Below, piece by piece: positions 1,814-11,479 of a stretch of DNA of 11,551 bases (the first letter of the stretch is position 1; the number at the start of each line of letters is the position of its first letter). The DNA lies in assembly GCA_049976845.1 (NCBI GenBank), contig JBMFHL010000022.1:1-11551 (forward strand), read 5' to 3'. The position numbers and the translations under genes were made by a program. The notes under the pieces were generated by a model, which worked only from the letters and a program-made list of their open reading frames with translations, did not search any database and was not told where the DNA came from. This DNA comes from Candidatus Micrarchaeia archaeon. Lineage in GTDB: Archaea > Micrarchaeota > Micrarchaeia > Micrarchaeales > CABMGC01.

Positions 1814-2860
1814 CTATTTGACTGATTTTTCCAATAACCTGAACCTTTTTCTGTGTGGATCAACTTCCGCAATTGCTCCTATTGGCAGAATCAGCTTTGG
1901 GTCGGTATGCCCAAAATCCATGTTGGTCACTAATGGAATGTCGCCAACCCCGAATTCCAGTTTCAGCACAGATTGTACTTTATCTTCCATTCTTGTCTTT
2001 TCTTCCATAGAATAACCTGACGGTATAGCAATAAGCAAAGCGGCTATCCTTTCGAGTATTCCTTGGCTGCCGTAATTTCTAACCCAATATTTTACCGTAT
2101 CAGGTGAAGGCTTTTCTTCTGAGGTTTCCAAGAACAATATCTTTCCGTTCCAAAAATCGTTGCTGGGCCAGAAGTGCGTTCCTTTCATGAATTCAAGAAC
2201 ATCTGCGCAGCCTCCAAAAAGCCTGCCCTTAACTGCCTTTTTCCCCTGCAGCCAATGCCATCCTTCATTTTTGTGCCTTTTATTTATCTTTCCTACGTTA
2301 CCCTTCTCCGCCCATTCAGGATAGCCGTCCGACCAGAAAGGGAAACTTTTGTACTCATATCCCTCTTTTGGCTTGAAAAGCAGGCTTCTTATCATATCCA
2401 AAAAAGAGCTAGGAAATCTTTCTGTTTGTGAAAGTCCTGCCATTACTGTAGGTCCATAATATGTCATAAGCCCTGTTCTGAGATGTATATAATCCAAAAA
2501 GGTAGTTGAATCTGACAAGCCCATTATGATCTTAGGATTCTTCTTTATCTTTTTCATATCTAAGTAATCCAATATCCTTACGGAATCGTCACCGCCTATG
2601 CTTACAATTATTGCTTTGACCTCTTTGTCAGCAAAAGCGTTGTTTATATCCTCTGCCCTTTCGCGCGGATGCATGTAAAGATAATCATTGCTTTTCCTTG
2701 CAGTATCATACTCCTTAACTTCGAGACCGAGGTGCTTTCTTATCATGTCAAGCCCGTGCTCGTATATGTGCGGAAATCTCTCCGGAACTCCCTCTGAAGG
2801 TGAAACTATAGCTACTGTGTCACCTTCGCTGAGCCTTTTCGGTTTTATAACACGCATCAT
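1814..2860 (-). CDS. S66 family serine peptidase (LD-carboxypeptidase / microcin C immunity MccF-like), copy 1
   Basis: KPKRLSEGDTVAIVSPS, RERAEDINNAFAD, IGGDDS, nucleophile GLSDSTT, FLETSEE (Glu), DFGHTDP (His). Start is probably MMRVIKP (2860 or 2857) rather than 2908. Confidence 0.92.
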   Translation of the reverse strand: MMRVIKPKRLSEGDTVAIVSPSEGVPERFPHIYEHGLDMIRKHLGLEVKEYDTARKSNDYLYMHPRERAEDINNAFADKEVKAIIVSIGGDDSVRILDYLDMKKIKKNPKIIMGLSDSTTFLDYIHLRTGLMTYYGPTVMAGLSQTERFPSSFLDMIRSLLFKPKEGYEYKSFPFWSDGYPEWAEKGNVGKINKRHKNEGWHWLQGKKAVKGRLFGGCADVLEFMKGTHFWPSNDFWNGKILFLETSEEKPSPDTVKYWVRNYGSQGILERIAALLIAIPSGYSMEEKTRMEDKVQSVLKLEFGVGDIPLVTNMDFGHTDPKLILPIGAIAEVDPHRKRFRLLEKSVK

Positions 2861-2932
2861 ATCAACTATCTCTTCGAAAATATTATTATTGCTTTTGTAC
2901 AATACCATGCAATATATTAAAATAAGGATAAA

Positions 2933-3005
2933 TGGGCCCGCGGAGAATCGGACTCCGGGTCTCCGCCTTGTGAAGGCGGCGTCTTAACCACTCGACTACG
3001 AGCCC
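2933..3005 (-). tRNA. tRNA-Val (anticodon CAC), intronless, CCA not encoded
   Basis: Cloverleaf: acceptor GGGCTCG/CGGGCCC plus discriminator A; D arm GTCG..AGAC; anticodon arm CCGCC-TTCACAA-GGCGG; T arm CGGAG-TCCGATT-CTCCG; 73 nt. Confidence 0.93.
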
Positions 3006-4938: not shown

Positions 4939-5922
4939 GTGACAATTATATCTAATAAGCTCGCAAAGGGCGACAAGGTAGCAGTTGTGGCTCCTGCGAA
5001 TAGCCTTTCTGTAATAAAGGAGTCAATCATAGCCACAGCAAAGCGTAGGCTTGCAGAGCTTGGATTAGAAGTTGTGATATCAGAGCATGCCTATGAAATT
5101 GACGATTTCAAGTCTTCAAGAATAGAATCAAGGATAGAAGATCTGCACTGGGCATTCTCGGATAAGAGCATAAAAGGCATACTTGCTGCCATAGGAGGAT
5201 TCAACAGCAACCAACTGCTCAGTTATATCGACTATGATATGATTGCAAAAAATCCAAAACCCTTCTGCGGTTATTCGGATATAACCGCGCTCGGGAATTC
5301 GTTACTCGCTAAATCGGGTTTAGTAACATACAGTGGTCCGAGTTTCTCCATTTTCGGAATGGAAAAAGGGCTTGATTACACCTTAGAATACTTCAAAAAA
5401 TGCCTCATGGAAAGCAAACCATACGAGATTGTTGCATCAAATGAATGGAGCGACGACAAGTGGTACAGAGACCAAGAAAACAGGATATTTATAAGAAACG
5501 AAGGCTACAAAGTAATTCACGAAGGTGTTGCCAAAGGCATGGTCATCGGTGGCAATCTAAACACATTTAATCTATTGCAAGGCACTGGGTATATGCCAAA
5601 CCTAAGCAACTCAATACTTTTTATCGAAGATGACTATGAATCTAATCCAGCTACATTTGACAGAGACCTGCAATCGCTGATACACCAGCCTGGTTTTGAT
5701 GGCGTGAAAGGAGTGGTTATAGGGAGATTTCAAAAAGCCTCTGAAATGAGTTTCAGCATGTTGTCAAAAATAATCAACGCCAAGAAAGAGCTGAAAGATA
5801 CGCCAGTAATATGCGATGTAGACTTCGGGCATACAACGCCGCAAGCCACCTTCCCAATTGGAGGCATAGCGAATATCACTGCTGATAAATCAGGCGCAAA
5901 GATAAAAATAATACAGCACTAA
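4939..5922 (+). CDS. S66 family serine peptidase (MccF-like), copy 2
   Basis: KLAKGDKVAVVAPA, IGGFNSNQLL, GYSDIT (Ser), GGNLNTF, LFIEDD (Glu), DFGHTTP (His). GTG start with TTTAAA at 4910-4915, about 24 nt upstream. Confidence 0.93.
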   Translation: MTIISNKLAKGDKVAVVAPANSLSVIKESIIATAKRRLAELGLEVVISEHAYEIDDFKSSRIESRIEDLHWAFSDKSIKGILAAIGGFNSNQLLSYIDYDMIAKNPKPFCGYSDITALGNSLLAKSGLVTYSGPSFSIFGMEKGLDYTLEYFKKCLMESKPYEIVASNEWSDDKWYRDQENRIFIRNEGYKVIHEGVAKGMVIGGNLNTFNLLQGTGYMPNLSNSILFIEDDYESNPATFDRDLQSLIHQPGFDGVKGVVIGRFQKASEMSFSMLSKIINAKKELKDTPVICDVDFGHTTPQATFPIGGIANITADKSGAKIKIIQH

Positions 5923-8647: not shown

Positions 8648-9574
8648 TTACCTCTTCGTCCCTTCAAGCATGAGTTCTTTCGGGTCTATGCCATTCATTA
8701 GCTCCTCCACTTGCGTGTGAAGCTCTATTATCTGCTGGTTCATAGCCCTTATCCTAGCTATATTCTTTACTTTTGATATTTTATTTGAGTTCATTACGGC
8801 AATCTCGGTGCTCAACTGGTCTATTTTCTTGTTGCTGTCCTTTATCATGTCCCTTATATACATCTTCACAGTAGTAGGCGTATCAGCGTATTCAAGCACC
8901 TTTACAGCAGTCATTACCGCAAGGTAGTTGTCTCTGAGCCTCTTCCCAAGCCCTATTATGAGGTTTGTAGTTGAGTTTGAAAAGTCCATCAAGGATTCGG
9001 CAGTGAAAGCCTTCTCGAGCAGCAAAGGTATTATGTGTACTTCGTAGTCCCACGAGTTACCAAGCTTGTCCCTTATAGACAATATGTTGTCCATTATTAT
9101 TGTCAGCTCGTTTATATTCTCAACCTTGTTTATCCAGCTCTGGAGCACAAGCACGTTATAGGCTTCTTTTTTGCTTTCTCCGAACCTTCTCTTGTAATCA
9201 TTTAGCAGCATGTTTGCAATCTTCGCCCTTGCATTATCAGTACTGGCATCGGAGCTGCTCTTATCTTCCTGCTTAAGCGCATTATAGTGCTTTATAAGTT
9301 CAGAGACATCCTCAGACTCGCTCAATACCATATAAACAGCATCAACAGCCTTCGATATACTCCCAGTCCTCTTGTAATAGCTGAGTACCAATGCCCCTGT
9401 CACTTCCGCATATTTCCTATACTCTGTGTTATTCTTCGCCTTTTTTATAATAAGCTCAAAAAGATGATTCTGCGCAGCAACGCCAGATTCTATTTCATTT
9501 CCTTTCTGGGCCATTTGATCAACTCCCATTCCTTCGAAACTTACACCACTCTCCATCATTATTCCCCCATTCAT
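8648..9574 (-). CDS. Hypothetical all-alpha protein with degenerate ~40-aa repeats and a C-terminal coiled coil
   Basis: 308-codon ORF; AGGAGG SD (9584-9589) 9 nt before ATG 9574; TTAAAAA box near 9629-9635; no family recognised. Confidence 0.75.
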   Translation of the reverse strand: MNGGIMMESGVSFEGMGVDQMAQKGNEIESGVAAQNHLFELIIKKAKNNTEYRKYAEVTGALVLSYYKRTGSISKAVDAVYMVLSESEDVSELIKHYNALKQEDKSSSDASTDNARAKIANMLLNDYKRRFGESKKEAYNVLVLQSWINKVENINELTIIMDNILSIRDKLGNSWDYEVHIIPLLLEKAFTAESLMDFSNSTTNLIIGLGKRLRDNYLAVMTAVKVLEYADTPTTVKMYIRDMIKDSNKKIDQLSTEIAVMNSNKISKVKNIARIRAMNQQIIELHTQVEELMNGIDPKELMLEGTKR

Positions 9575-9713: not shown

Positions 9714-9869
9714 TCAATTGCTCTCATGTTCATGTGCATCTGCATAGACTATTCGCCACGAGTTATAACCGTCTCTTATGACCTTTATCGGCCTGCTCTC
9801 GTCAGCATCTGCATAATATGCATAATGCTTCTTTGCGAATATGCCTCTTATTGCATCTGATAAAGTCAT
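9714..9869 (-). CDS. Small 51-aa hypothetical protein (below the ORF-track cutoff)
   Basis: MTLSDAIRGIFAKKHYAYYADADESRPIKVIRDGYNSWRIVYADAHEHESN*. Its ATG overlaps the upstream TGA (ATGA, 9866-9869), is preceded by GAGGGGGCGAGGGT, and the ORF fills an otherwise empty gap. Confidence 0.65.
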   Translation of the reverse strand: MTLSDAIRGIFAKKHYAYYADADESRPIKVIRDGYNSWRIVYADAHEHESN

Positions 9870-10168
9870 ACCCTCGCCCCCTCTAATTGGTGCTTTCTGA
9901 GTGTATAATGCACTTCTACAGCCTTATGCCCCTGCAGTGTCTTTCCTACGAAACCCCTGAGATTCCTGAGCTCATCTATATCATTCTTCGCCTTGATAAC
10001 ATAACCAAAGTCTCCGCTGGTTATCTGCACCTCCTCTACGCCTTTCAATCCAAGCAGTTGCGAAGCCACCTCCTTCGCATTCGTATTCGGCTGCGGTTTT
10101 ATGAAATAAAAGCCGTACCCACCGTGCCTGCATATGTCAATGCTCCATGCGTCCTTTTGTTTTGCCAT
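9866..10168 (-). CDS. Stand-alone Lrp/AsnC ligand-binding (RAM) domain protein lacking an HTH
   Basis: FYFIKPQPNTNAKEVASQLLGLKGVEEVQITSGDFGYVIKA fits the RAM beta-alpha-beta-beta pattern (EV...[TS]G.[FY]D). GGTGGGG SD precedes ATG 10168; an alternative in-frame ATG lies at 10210. Confidence 0.72.
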   Translation of the reverse strand: MAKQKDAWSIDICRHGGYGFYFIKPQPNTNAKEVASQLLGLKGVEEVQITSGDFGYVIKAKNDIDELRNLRGFVGKTLQGHKAVEVHYTLRKHQLEGARV

Positions 10169-10219
10169 ATCCCCACCATATATTATAAATATGCAGCTAA
10201 CAAAAATCATAGATTAGAA

Positions 10220-10323
10220 ATGGTAATGGTATGCACAGACACTGATGTGGTTTGGGAGAGCAAAGAACAAGAGCCTGTGCACATGAGCATTATTATATAT
10301 AATATCTCACTTCCCATTACCAT
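10220..10323 (-). ncRNA. Candidate structured 5' leader or small RNA (three-way junction)
   Basis: P1 AUGGUAAUGG (10323-10314) pairs with CCAUUACCAU (10229-10220); P2 spans 10310-10283; P3 10282-10273 pairs with 10240-10231. G-U pairs work only on the minus strand, and the 5' end is 24 nt from a TTTATA box. Confidence 0.45.
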
Positions 10324-10346
10324 GATATAATTTTTGGCAGAGGAGG

Positions 10347-10359
10347 TATAAATATATAT
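10347..10359 (-). promoter_or_regulatory. TATA box for the minus-strand leader/RAM transcript
   Basis: Minus-strand ATATATATTTATA ends 24 nt upstream of A10323. Confidence 0.55.
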
Positions 10360-10374: not shown

Positions 10375-10486
10375 TTAAATTGATATAATATGCCTAAAAA
10401 ACATAATATATTTTTAGTTTTTGAGATTATAAATAGCATAAGCATATCAAATTTATAACCTTTTATTACAATAAAACTGTGATTTA

Positions 10487-11479
10487 ATGCCATCAAGGGA
10501 GACGCAAGAGTACATAAAGAATCAGCTGCCTTACGAGATTCTGAAGAGGGTATACAAGAATTCAAGGCTTTCCCTCAGAGCCCTGGGCAGGGAACTGAAC
10601 ATCTCTTATCACGTAGTAAAAACAGTACTAAACAAGCTCGAAGATAAATATAATCTAGCATATACCCTGGATTTGGATGAGGTGAAGCTTGGCTTTGCTA
10701 AGGCAAAAATTGTAATAATAAAGTTCAGCGAGAGGCCTGGCATAGACGCAATAAAGAAGGAACTGGTAAATGACCCATATGTGCAGAATGCATACCTAGT
10801 AGAAGGGGATTTCGATTTAATGCTTCATATAGTTGGTTTATCAACAGAGGAGTTTGGCGTTTGGCAATGGCTTTTTAGGCTAAAGTTCAACAATTTCAAG
10901 GTAAAGCTCGAAGTTGCCGATATATCAAGAAATTATGTTGGCTTTTTGCCCTTAAGAAGCGAATTGCTATTAAAGTCGCCGGTGCTCTCGCATTCCGAAA
11001 AGCAGATACTAGTGCAGCTTAACAATAACTCAAAGGAGAAGCTAAGCGAAATTGCAAGGAAGCTCAAGGTAAAGGACCTTGACAGGCTTTTGTACATAAT
11101 AAGGAAGTTGAAGAACAATGGAATAATAAAAAGCTTCTCCGCACTGACGCAGAACCCGGACAAAACACTCTTTTACGTTTTCTCTGTTTATGTAAACCCA
11201 AGCGAGCAGCACAGTGCTTTGGTTAAAAAATTCAACGAAGAGATATTTAAAGAAGAGAATAATATAGTGAGTACCTATAGCTTTATGAGCAGCATGCAGG
11301 GCTTCTGCGATGGCATATACCTATGTGTCTTTAAAGATGGAGAGGAATTAGCAAAAAAGGGTCCTGATTTGATAAAAAGCCTCTGGTCTGCAGAGGATCC
11401 TATAATAAAAAAAGGGGTAATAACCGGAATACTAGTAGGCAAATGGCCTTTCCATTTGGAAGAAATGAAAATAAAATAA
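10487..11479 (+). CDS. Tandem (double) Lrp/AsnC family transcriptional regulator, HTH-RAM-HTH-RAM
   Basis: HTH1 ILKRVYKNSRLSLRALGRELNIS; linker LDEVKLGF; RAM1 VQNAYLVEGDFDLML; HTH2 EKQILVQLNNNSKEKLSEIARKL..LKNNGIIKSF; degenerate RAM2 (QGFCDGIY). Confidence 0.85.
   Translation: MPSRETQEYIKNQLPYEILKRVYKNSRLSLRALGRELNISYHVVKTVLNKLEDKYNLAYTLDLDEVKLGFAKAKIVIIKFSERPGIDAIKKELVNDPYVQNAYLVEGDFDLMLHIVGLSTEEFGVWQWLFRLKFNNFKVKLEVADISRNYVGFLPLRSELLLKSPVLSHSEKQILVQLNNNSKEKLSEIARKLKVKDLDRLLYIIRKLKNNGIIKSFSALTQNPDKTLFYVFSVYVNPSEQHSALVKKFNEEIFKEENNIVSTYSFMSSMQGFCDGIYLCVFKDGEELAKKGPDLIKSLWSAEDPIIKKGVITGILVGKWPFHLEEMKIK

Follow-up and report, generated by a model that had tools for sequence, protein, structure and literature searches.

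The Locus and Its Flanking Genes

The DNA considered here, referred to as the window, is a stretch of 11,551 nucleotides that makes up contig C22 (JBMFHL010000022.1) of a Candidatus Micrarchaeia genome (assembly GCA_049976845.1). This host genome, designated G000, comprises 731 kb in 52 contigs and is about 90% complete. The public DNA run that holds the largest share of the window's words (0.34) is labelled as a hot-spring metagenome, and the other listed runs hold small shares. The element under study lies in a divergent intergenic region of 318 bp between an Lrp/AsnC-like gene on the plus strand and a RAM-like gene on the minus strand (Table 1). The Lrp-like gene is syntenic in the related genomes G001, G004, G005, and G006.

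The 100-aa product of the RAM-like gene is probably a stand-alone RAM domain. It matches the Pfam family AsnC_trans_reg (PF01037) with an E value of 0.0011 and 19.3 bits, under the 25-bit cut-off, and no HTH match was found in the 100-aa protein. A profile of the RAM family (8 members) gave 2e1a and 2cvi as its top matches in the PDB (E 0.006-0.008). Both are named there as 75-aa AsnC-type regulatory proteins, and we take them to be the stand-alone RAM protein DM1. The next matches are the Lrp-family regulators PH1519 (presumably FL11), an ST-type AsnC, and E. coli Lrp. The AlphaFold2 model of the RAM-like protein is of low confidence (pLDDT 47.6) and gives the strand and helix order b-b-a-b-b-a-b. 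The stand-alone RAM gene named in the preliminary description of this DNA is thus kept as a probable assignment only, the Pfam score being sub-threshold and the profile match to 2e1a being at E 0.006. The review PMC2995911 describes the role of stand-alone RAM proteins as unclear and mentions hetero-oligomers with full-length Lrp proteins as a proposal.

Table 1. Features of the intergenic region and its neighbours in the window, in window coordinates.
Feature	Position	Strand	Remarks
Divergent Lrp/AsnC-like gene	10487..11479	+	330 aa; two winged-helix regions and a RAM region; Pfam HTH_24, HTH_27, AsnC_trans_reg
TATA box TTTATA, RAM-gene promoter	10347..10352	-	flanking block AGATAATTATTTATATA conserved
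P1 5' arm AUGGUAAUGG	10314..10323	-	at the predicted transcript 5' end; holds the first AUG; resembles the ribosome-binding region AUGGUGG
P2 hairpin (GUGAG...CUCAU)	10283..10310	-	AT-rich, specific to the window genome; in the minimum-free-energy fold
P3 stem GUGCACAGGC/GUCUGUGCAU with apical part	10231..10282	-	two G-U pairs
Invariant C-rich 17-mer UGCUCUCCCAAACCACA	10246..10262	-	identical in all type-1 sequences and G005
P1 3' arm CCAUUACCAU	10220..10229	-	also complementary to the ribosome-binding region; candidate anti-SD
Insertion (~33 nt) specific to the window genome	10181..10217	-	between P1 and the ribosome-binding site; holds U5 (10206-10202) and TTTATAAT (10189-10182)
Ribosome-binding region AUGGUGGGG	10171..10179	-	GGUG = Shine-Dalgarno core
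RAM-like gene, downstream of the leader	9866..10168	-	100 aa; start at 10168, GGUGGGG at 10177-10171

Fold of the Window Sequence

Read on the minus strand, the element folds into a three-way junction in which the helices P2 and P3 are enclosed by P1, a perfect helix of 10 bp. The minimum-free-energy fold computed with ViennaRNA for 10330-10202 is exactly the junction that the preliminary description had drawn, at the same coordinates. Its energy is -38.4 kcal/mol (z -4.84), and none of 200 dinucleotide shuffles folded as well. The 104-nt core alone (10323-10220) reaches -37.8 kcal/mol with a z-score of -5.52, again with no shuffle out of 200 as good. The plus strand folds less well, at -32.1 kcal/mol (z -3.12), and 1 of 200 shuffles was as good. 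The fold in the window sequence is real and better than chance. ViennaRNA folds exclude pseudoknots, so that a pseudoknot between the 17-mer and GGGGA lies outside the scope of these values.

The element is new to Rfam, in agreement with the earlier statement that it resembled no known family. In Rfam 15, no family matched the element at E values up to 10, and none matched four homologous loci at E values up to 1. Within a 1-kb search range, the sole match was cow-rumen-1 at 10069-10125, inside the RAM coding sequence, with 13.9 bits against a gathering score of 53.4. At the gathering score, the whole window gave only a tRNA at 2933-3005. Readings of the element as a K-turn, C/D-box, H/ACA, or 5S rRNA were dropped by eye, the motifs being absent, the length wrong, or the element tied to each gene copy.

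Distribution and Relatives

In a BLAST search of 61 related genomes, the element turned up in G006, G001, and G004, with a weak match in G005 as well; these four genomes belong to the same genus. A scan of public genomes and metagenomes with a DNA pattern based on the invariant part gave 80 loci (35 from genomes, 45 from metagenomes), and the whole element is present in 14 of them. The other 66 were rejected as chance matches, mostly bacterial. A covariance model, R1, was built on 13 distinct sequences and searched in 118 family genomes. It gave 7 strong matches (E 1e-29 to 4.5e-17) in 6 of the 118, all in genus g1, and added an instance in G002 and a second locus in G004. The same search gave no match in G003. 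Ten matches outside the genus had E values of 0.09-0.96; the five that were inspected (G098, G086, G075, G026, and G129) were set aside as noise-like, since inspection by eye showed neither a P1 nor a TATA or ribosome-binding layout.

The window genome has one copy of the element, also by the covariance-model search. Public records that carry the same element are MAGs of Candidatus Micrarchaeota or Micrarchaeia. The element is confined to one genus of Candidatus Micrarchaeota.

The surroundings of the element are largely constant. A divergent Lrp-like gene is located upstream in every instance examined (in G002 by eye only), and a RAM-like gene follows downstream in all of them except G001, where a 15-codon ORF takes its place, and G002, where the contig stops about 20 codons into the RAM-like frame. 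Two paralogous locus types can be distinguished, each made up of an Lrp-like gene, the leader, and a RAM-like gene. Type 1 comprises the loci of G000 (the window), G006, G004-C2, G001, and L093, and type 2 those of G005, G004-C1 (L100), and G002. Identity to the Lrp protein of the window is 46% for type 2 and 64-68% within type 1. The leader core of G000 has 86-90% identity to that of G006 or G004; over the coding sequences, the identity is 59-60% for RAM and 70% for Lrp.

The Closing Stem and Its Interior

P1 is present across the lineages with a length of 10-13 bp. Its cells are paired in 94.8% of cases, compared with 30-61% when the partner columns are slid. Three P1 pairs have changed on both sides (A-U to G-U to G-C, U-A to U-G to C-G, and G-C to A-U); as many were equalled in 35 of 500 shuffles, and the sampling is shallow (one genus, about 9 lineages), with few independent covariation events. 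Among the P1 cells there are 8 G-U and no A-C pairs, which argues for a constraint on the RNA of the gene-sense strand. RNA-level selection on this strand had been proposed from the window alone, and it is borne out by a helix that evolves via G-U intermediates. In all nine lineages tested, P1 closes the minimum-free-energy fold (z -5.5 to -1.8), and the distance from arm to arm varies from about 56 to 84 nt. The element is an RNA structure, both conserved and strand-specific, at what is predicted to be the 5' end of the RAM-gene transcript.

The interior of the junction behaves differently. P2 differs in every lineage, the relatives having other, shorter, or no hairpins at this place. The P3 stem occurs in 4 of the 13 aligned rows (G000, G006, G001, and L093) with G-C/G-U variation only and no both-sided change, and its 5' arm is missing from the G004-type and G005-type sequences. 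The three-way junction, taken as a conserved unit, has therefore to be given up.

What is kept inside P1 is the C-rich 17-mer. The type-2 loci L100 and G002 retain AU(G/A)CUCCCCAAA in place of its full length. With up to 2 mismatches, neither a second copy nor a complement of the 17-mer was found in the genome; matches appear only at 3-4 mismatches, and the five inspected by eye are coding-like sequence. Against either the 5' arm or the ribosome-binding site, shuffled C-rich sequence pairs as strongly as the 17-mer, so that pairing does not account for the invariance of the 17-mer. Its constancy suggests that it is specifically recognised, whether by a protein, a ligand, or a tertiary contact. 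A small hairpin, UUUG/CAAA, that would present CUCUCC was rejected, as it is broken in 3 of 5 lineages. The conserved anatomy consists of P1, the invariant C-rich motif, and the ribosome-binding region.

Promoter, Predicted Transcript Start, and 3' Side

The last A of TTTATA lies 24 nt from position 10323, and in 10 of 10 lineages its first T is found 28-31 nt upstream of the first base of P1. Archaeal transcripts start at a characteristic distance from the TATA box, and from this usual spacing the transcription start is predicted at the first P1 base (10323), within about 2 nt. With such a start, the first bases of the RNA would form the 5' arm of P1. The preliminary description had placed the beginning of the structure at the predicted start, and the spacing kept in every lineage agrees with it.

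The 3' side is less uniform. The insertion of about 33 nt that separates P1 from the ribosome-binding site in the window has no counterpart in G002 or in the 12 further sequences of the alignment; outside G000, P1 ends 8-22 nt before GGUGGGG. A U tract after P1 occurs as U5 within this insertion and as U4 in G001, and the other lineages have none. In the 13-row alignment, no conserved U tract directly after a hairpin, as in intrinsic termination, was found. Since the U5 sits in an insertion of the window genome only, it is not a conserved terminator or the 3' end of a small RNA, and it drops out of the element in which it had been included. In a metatranscriptome library, one contig of 162 nt matches 10216-10296 with 2 differences; DNA may be present in such libraries, and assembled contigs cannot show transcript ends. 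The contig comes from a relative, because one of its ends is adapter and the other runs into unlike sequence. On these grounds, the element is taken as a 5' leader whose transcript would continue into the RAM gene, and not as a conserved terminator or a separate small RNA.

The earlier proposal had left a choice between a riboswitch- or attenuator-like leader and a small RNA. Of these, the leader of the RAM-like gene stands, and the terminator and the small RNA are not supported. A classical small-molecule riboswitch is a poor fit, given a P1 of 10-13 bp and the lack of a conserved aptamer interior.

Coding Potential of the Leader

The leader region could instead be protein-coding, as an upstream ORF or as an N-terminal extension of the RAM protein that starts at the 5'-terminal AUG or GUG. 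Indeed, the frame that opens at the AUG of the 5' arm runs stop-free into the RAM ORF in G006, in the G004-type sequences, and in L093, and in G001 it enters the short ORF found in place of RAM. In every lineage the frame begins with M/V-V-M, and long forms of 109-149 aa are annotated by some gene callers. Such open frames say little, given how few stops any of the three frames has in the C-rich stretch. On the other side, the conserved nucleotides fall in three different frames among the lineages. In G000 the frame is interrupted by an in-frame TAA and shifted, and in L100 and G002 it ends after 8 codons. The extension cannot be aligned between lineages, and the 17-mer is unvarying at every codon position, yet the RAM proteins are only 43-50% identical to that of the window. 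The NCBI-sourced record of the G006 protein (P0002) is the short form. The shifting frames, the stops, the unalignable extension, and the invariant 17-mer place the constraint on the nucleic acid, and a coding function is regarded as improbable. The long ORF calls across the leader region are probably artefacts. A short leaderless ORF starting with M-V-M may exist; the upstream ORF can be as short as 8 codons or so long that it fuses with RAM, and neither its frame nor its peptide is conserved.

The Ribosome-Binding Region and Proposed Competing Pairings

GGUGGGG is invariant in 12 of 13 rows, and L080 has GGCGGGG. Ribosome-binding sites of the GGUG type are in use in the window genome: of 757 long ORFs, 14.1% have a GGTG in the 20 nt before them, compared with 4.5% for shuffled sequence. 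That only 14% of the long ORFs are so preceded counts against the translational control proposed below. The 3' end of the 16S rRNA in three members of the genus is GAUCACCUCA. From the enrichment of GGTG and this 3' end, it follows that the invariant G run after GGUG exceeds what a match to the rRNA requires.

The ribosome-binding region also resembles the beginning of the transcript. The 7-mer AUGGUGG is present at both the 5' arm and the ribosome-binding site in 8 of 13 rows, and in 97.4% of cells the 3' arm is able to form a helix with the ribosome-binding region. A both-sided change in G001 (A-U to U-A), with one substitution in the 3' arm and the other next to the ribosome-binding site, breaks a P1 pair and leaves that helix intact; the change is the only one of its kind and does not reach significance (248/500).

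The consequences of these pairings were followed by folding in silico. When the 5' arm is blocked at 37 C, the probability that GGUG is unpaired falls to 0.00-0.08 in 8 of 9 lineages; in the remaining one, L093, GGUG is occluded on blocking only at 65 C. Blocking of the 17-mer leaves this probability unchanged or raises it. P1 is the predicted dominant state in 7 of 9 lineages; for G005 and L098 the minimum-free-energy prediction is an alternative fold that joins the 5' arm to the 17-mer and the 3' arm to the ribosome-binding site. P1 beats the alternative by 1-9 kcal/mol, at 37 and at 60 C, and would thus dominate unless opened. The helices are much weaker at 60 C.

A mechanism may be proposed from these properties. 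The leader carries two mutually similar G-rich segments, namely, the 5' arm AUGGUAAUGG(UGG) and the ribosome-binding region AUGGUGGGG, and two C-rich segments, namely, the invariant 17-mer and the 3' arm (CC)ACCAUUACCAU. With P1 formed, the 3' arm would be occupied and the ribosome-binding site free. With the 5' arm unavailable, the 3' arm would pair with the ribosome-binding site and keep ribosomes from initiating at the start codon of RAM. What withdraws the 5' arm might be a bound factor, the 17-mer as its pairing partner, or a ribosome sitting at the 5'-terminal AUG. The best-supported mechanism for the leader is that of a translational control element which acts on the RAM-like gene through such competing pairings, and we give it about an even chance of being right. 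That the two states alternate in the cell, that they control translation, and what the trigger would be are points that we infer from the predicted pairings.

Alternative Explanations

Several other explanations have to be set against translational control by competing pairings, and two of them deny that the element is a leader RNA at all. An independent small RNA that ends after P1 would account for the TATA box of its own, for a compact fold that would pair the 5' and 3' ends, and for the U5 and U4 that follow P1 in G000 and G001. It is nevertheless very unlikely: most lineages are without a U tract, and outside G000 there is no room for a separate RAM promoter because P1 ends so close to the ribosome-binding site. 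In G000 itself, TTTATAAT is too near the start codon, its first T being 21 nt before the A of the ATG, as against the 28-31 nt between the TATA box and P1. The arms of P1 might also be seen as an inverted repeat acting at the DNA level, e.g., as an operator of the divergent Lrp-like regulator, and both the divergent intergenic position beside the Lrp-like gene and the perfect inverted repeat that the arms form in G000 are in keeping with this. The pattern of change is not, as it passes through G-U pairs, which are mismatched in DNA or on the other strand. The varying spacing of the arms is equally out of place in an operator, for which a different AT-rich repeat, conserved at a site further upstream, is the better candidate. 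An operator role of the arms is scarcely probable.

The two explanations that accept a leader RNA differ in what P1 is for. P1 may be a constitutive 5'-terminal stem, which would shield the mRNA from 5'-end-dependent decay and hide the 5'-terminal AUG from leaderless initiation, with no switching. 5'-terminal stems are known to stabilise bacterial mRNAs, and a helix of 10-13 bp that starts at the predicted +1 in all 10 lineages and dominates the predicted ensemble in 7 of 9 is what such a function would call for. Left unexplained are the invariant 17-mer, the G run after GGUG, and the likeness of the 5' arm to the ribosome-binding site, and a mere stem gives no account of the change in G001 that favours the helix of the 3' arm with the ribosome-binding region over P1. 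We consider a constitutive stem rather unlikely. In a small-molecule riboswitch, the interior would bind a metabolite such as an amino acid, which would stabilise P1 and free the ribosome-binding site. Translational ON riboswitches have a closing P1 whose 3' strand is able to pair with the ribosome-binding site, a layout that is found here, together with invariant unpaired nucleotides inside the element and flanking genes that resemble amino-acid sensors. The weakness of the helices at 60 C, combined with the hot-spring label of the best-matching DNA run, also speaks for a ligand-stabilised P1. The interior helices, by contrast, are those that are not conserved, P2 being variable and P3 confined to 4 of 13 rows; P1 is far longer than is usual for a ligand-gated P1; and Rfam offers no match. 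A small-molecule riboswitch is accordingly judged quite unlikely, and translational control by competing pairings is kept as the working model.

Comparison with Known Systems

The working model has features in common with several classes of regulatory leaders. The translational riboswitches whose P1 3' strand acts as an anti-Shine-Dalgarno sequence, such as the adenine riboswitch "add", share with it a P1 near the transcript start, a 3' strand complementary to the ribosome-binding site, conserved unpaired nucleotides in the interior, and a placement directly upstream of the regulated gene. Unlike them, the present leader has interior helices that are not conserved, a P1 of 10-13 bp, no Rfam match, and a DPANN host. 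The bacterial attenuator leaders of the trp, ilv, and his operons are similar in their four mutually complementary segments, their two exclusive folds, the ORF (here M-V-M-V...) in segment 1, and the amino-acid-sensing context. They differ in that the leader has no conserved terminator, that neither the length nor the peptide of its ORF is conserved, and that the ORF would be leaderless. Because no terminator is conserved, the output of the leader would be translation and not transcription.

An invariant single-stranded sequence near the ribosome-binding site is also known from the trp leader bound by TRAP, from HutP, and from the autoregulation of ribosomal proteins. The protein-dependent leaders of the TRAP and HutP kind have in common with the present one a downstream gene for a small, probably oligomeric, ligand-binding protein, but the repeat motifs of those systems are not found in the leader, and RAM domains are not known to bind RNA. 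Finally, the stabilising 5' stem-loops of bacterial mRNAs, such as those of ompA and of Bacillus transcripts, resemble P1 in that the helix starts at +1 and leaves no free 5' tail, whereas in the leader the partner strand is 56-84 nt away, an invariant motif is enclosed, and the ribosome-binding site is abutted.

Possible Leaders of More Distant RAM-Like Genes

Long closing stems are also seen upstream of more distant RAM-like genes, with unrelated sequence and C-rich interiors. A stem score of at least 11 was reached in 12 of 43 such upstream regions, among them L103 from the unpublished genome G050, and in 1-5 regions in ten mononucleotide shuffles. "Type B" leaders, which occur in five genomes of another genus and in G003, have a 14-bp stem GGUUUGUGGGG/CCCCACAAACC with one G-C to A-U change and an invariant ACCCACCCUU. 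In G025, a hairpin beside the ribosome-binding site presents UUGUUCCCCACCAAAC (z -4.5). Hints of a wider class come from the type-B leader, from the leader of L102, and from the surplus of long stems in front of distant homologues. By analogy, they suggest that a broader and fast-evolving class of leaders may stand before RAM-like genes.

Significance

To our knowledge, cis-regulatory RNAs are rarely documented in archaea. A literature search found no paper on Micrarchaeota and riboswitches together, and among the matches listed for DPANN and riboswitch, whose titles and abstract beginnings were the basis, none concerned such a leader.

A more far-reaching reading may be put forward with due reserve. 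The leader might be an effector-sensing translational switch new to archaea, in which the 17-mer would dock the amino-acid-loaded RAM or Lrp-like protein, and it might belong to a wider Micrarchaeota class, with a closing stem and a C-rich motif, before RAM-gene operons. The chance that this is so is small. If the docking were true, the locus would hold an autoregulatory loop like that of TRAP or HutP, and a RAM domain would for the first time have a role in binding RNA.

For annotation, the leader is a warning with regard to long ORF calls over the leader region. Its design is compact, with two mimics of a ribosome-binding site, two anti-site segments, and an invariant motif of 17 nt. If the model of competing pairings is right, a genome of about 0.7 Mb would have post-transcriptional control attached to a putative amino-acid-sensing gene pair.

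Variants of the Leader and of the Ribosome-Binding Site

The leader RNA of the window is kept intact in G001, a genome of the same genus (loci L029/L006, G001:C9), where the open reading frame past the ribosome-binding site consists of 15 codons only. A search of this genome for a RAM-like gene found none; the RAM gene is retained in L093, a locus from a close relative. A metagenome variant of the leader type found in G004, another genome of the genus, carries GGCGGGG in place of GGUGGGG at the ribosome-binding site (locus L080). This is the sole change seen in the GGUGGGG motif and may stem from a sequencing error.

Neighboring Genes

The RAM-like gene is followed on the same strand by two open reading frames, for neither of which a Pfam search gave a match, and both may share an operon with it. 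Elsewhere in the window, two LD-carboxypeptidase (Peptidase_S66) genes lie at most 3 kb apart, and their surroundings include ScpA/ScpB, cobalamin adenosyltransferase, a TauE exporter, an amino-acid kinase, peroxiredoxin, and aldehyde dehydrogenase.

Coordinates of genes, leaders, and promoter-region motifs
Feature	Location	Strand	Remark
51-aa ORF	window 9714-9869	(-)	overlaps RAM stop codon (ATGA)
308-aa ORF	window 8648-9574	(-)	next after 51-aa ORF
Peptidase_S66 gene	window 1814-2908	(-)	
Peptidase_S66 gene	window 4939-5922	(+)	
AT-rich tandem motif	window 10413-10428	(-)	
TTTATAAC	window 10453-10489	(+)	
Variant leader	L080:1456-1569		GGCGGGG
Type B leader	L123:1787-1899	(-)	
Type B leader	L107:1815-1933	(-)	
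Type B leader	L113:1792-1898	(-)	
Further type B leaders	G142, G150, G171		

Other Leaders of RAM-Like Genes

A second leader family, referred to as type B, is located 5′ of RAM-like genes in G003, a related genome in which the covariance model of the window's leader gave no hit, and in five genomes from a different genus. Its closing stem comprises 14 bp (GGUUUGUGGGG/CCCCACAAACC) with a single double change, from G-C to A-U; its interior motif, ACCCACCCUU, is invariant, and a TATA box is situated about 25-30 nt upstream.

Structured regions also precede more distant RAM-like genes. At locus L102 (G025:C4), a hairpin GCUGAUGACGCGC.../...GCGCGCCAUCAGU that presents UUGUUCCCCACCAAAC is found about 77 nt upstream of the RAM-like start, with a folding energy of −24.9 kcal/mol (z = −4.5). 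After it come UUUAUGCU and a ribosome-binding site, and a second, long-range stem (GGGCGGG/CCCGCC) lies farther upstream. This leader may be distantly related to the window's element. The 43 regions scored upstream of distant RAM-like genes (loci L102-L147) show an excess of long-range stems over shuffles, a score of at least 11 being reached in 12 regions versus 1-5 in ten shuffles; a UUUUCAUGCUUA-like motif often stands 3′ of the 3′ arm of the stem.

Divergent Promoters and Translation Signals

Between the two divergent promoters, an AT-rich tandem motif, AATCTCAAAA(A/T)CT(A/C)AAA, is conserved in the window's genome (G000), G006, G004, and G001; the Lrp-like protein may use it as an operator. 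On the plus strand, the Lrp-like gene begins with an ATG at 10487, and TTTATAAC is placed about 28-34 nt upstream of it; the stretch in between holds no ribosome-binding motif. On sequence grounds, the Lrp-like mRNA is probably leaderless.

The motif searched for the 16S rRNA 3′ end had no match in the window's own assembly. GGCUGG is the usual form at one position near this end. The 3′ ends of the genus, read from L171 (G006), L172 (G002), and L175 (G004), are ...GGAUAGAUCACCUCA, with GGAUAG in its place, and this ending agrees with the GGUGAU-type ribosome-binding sites of the genome.
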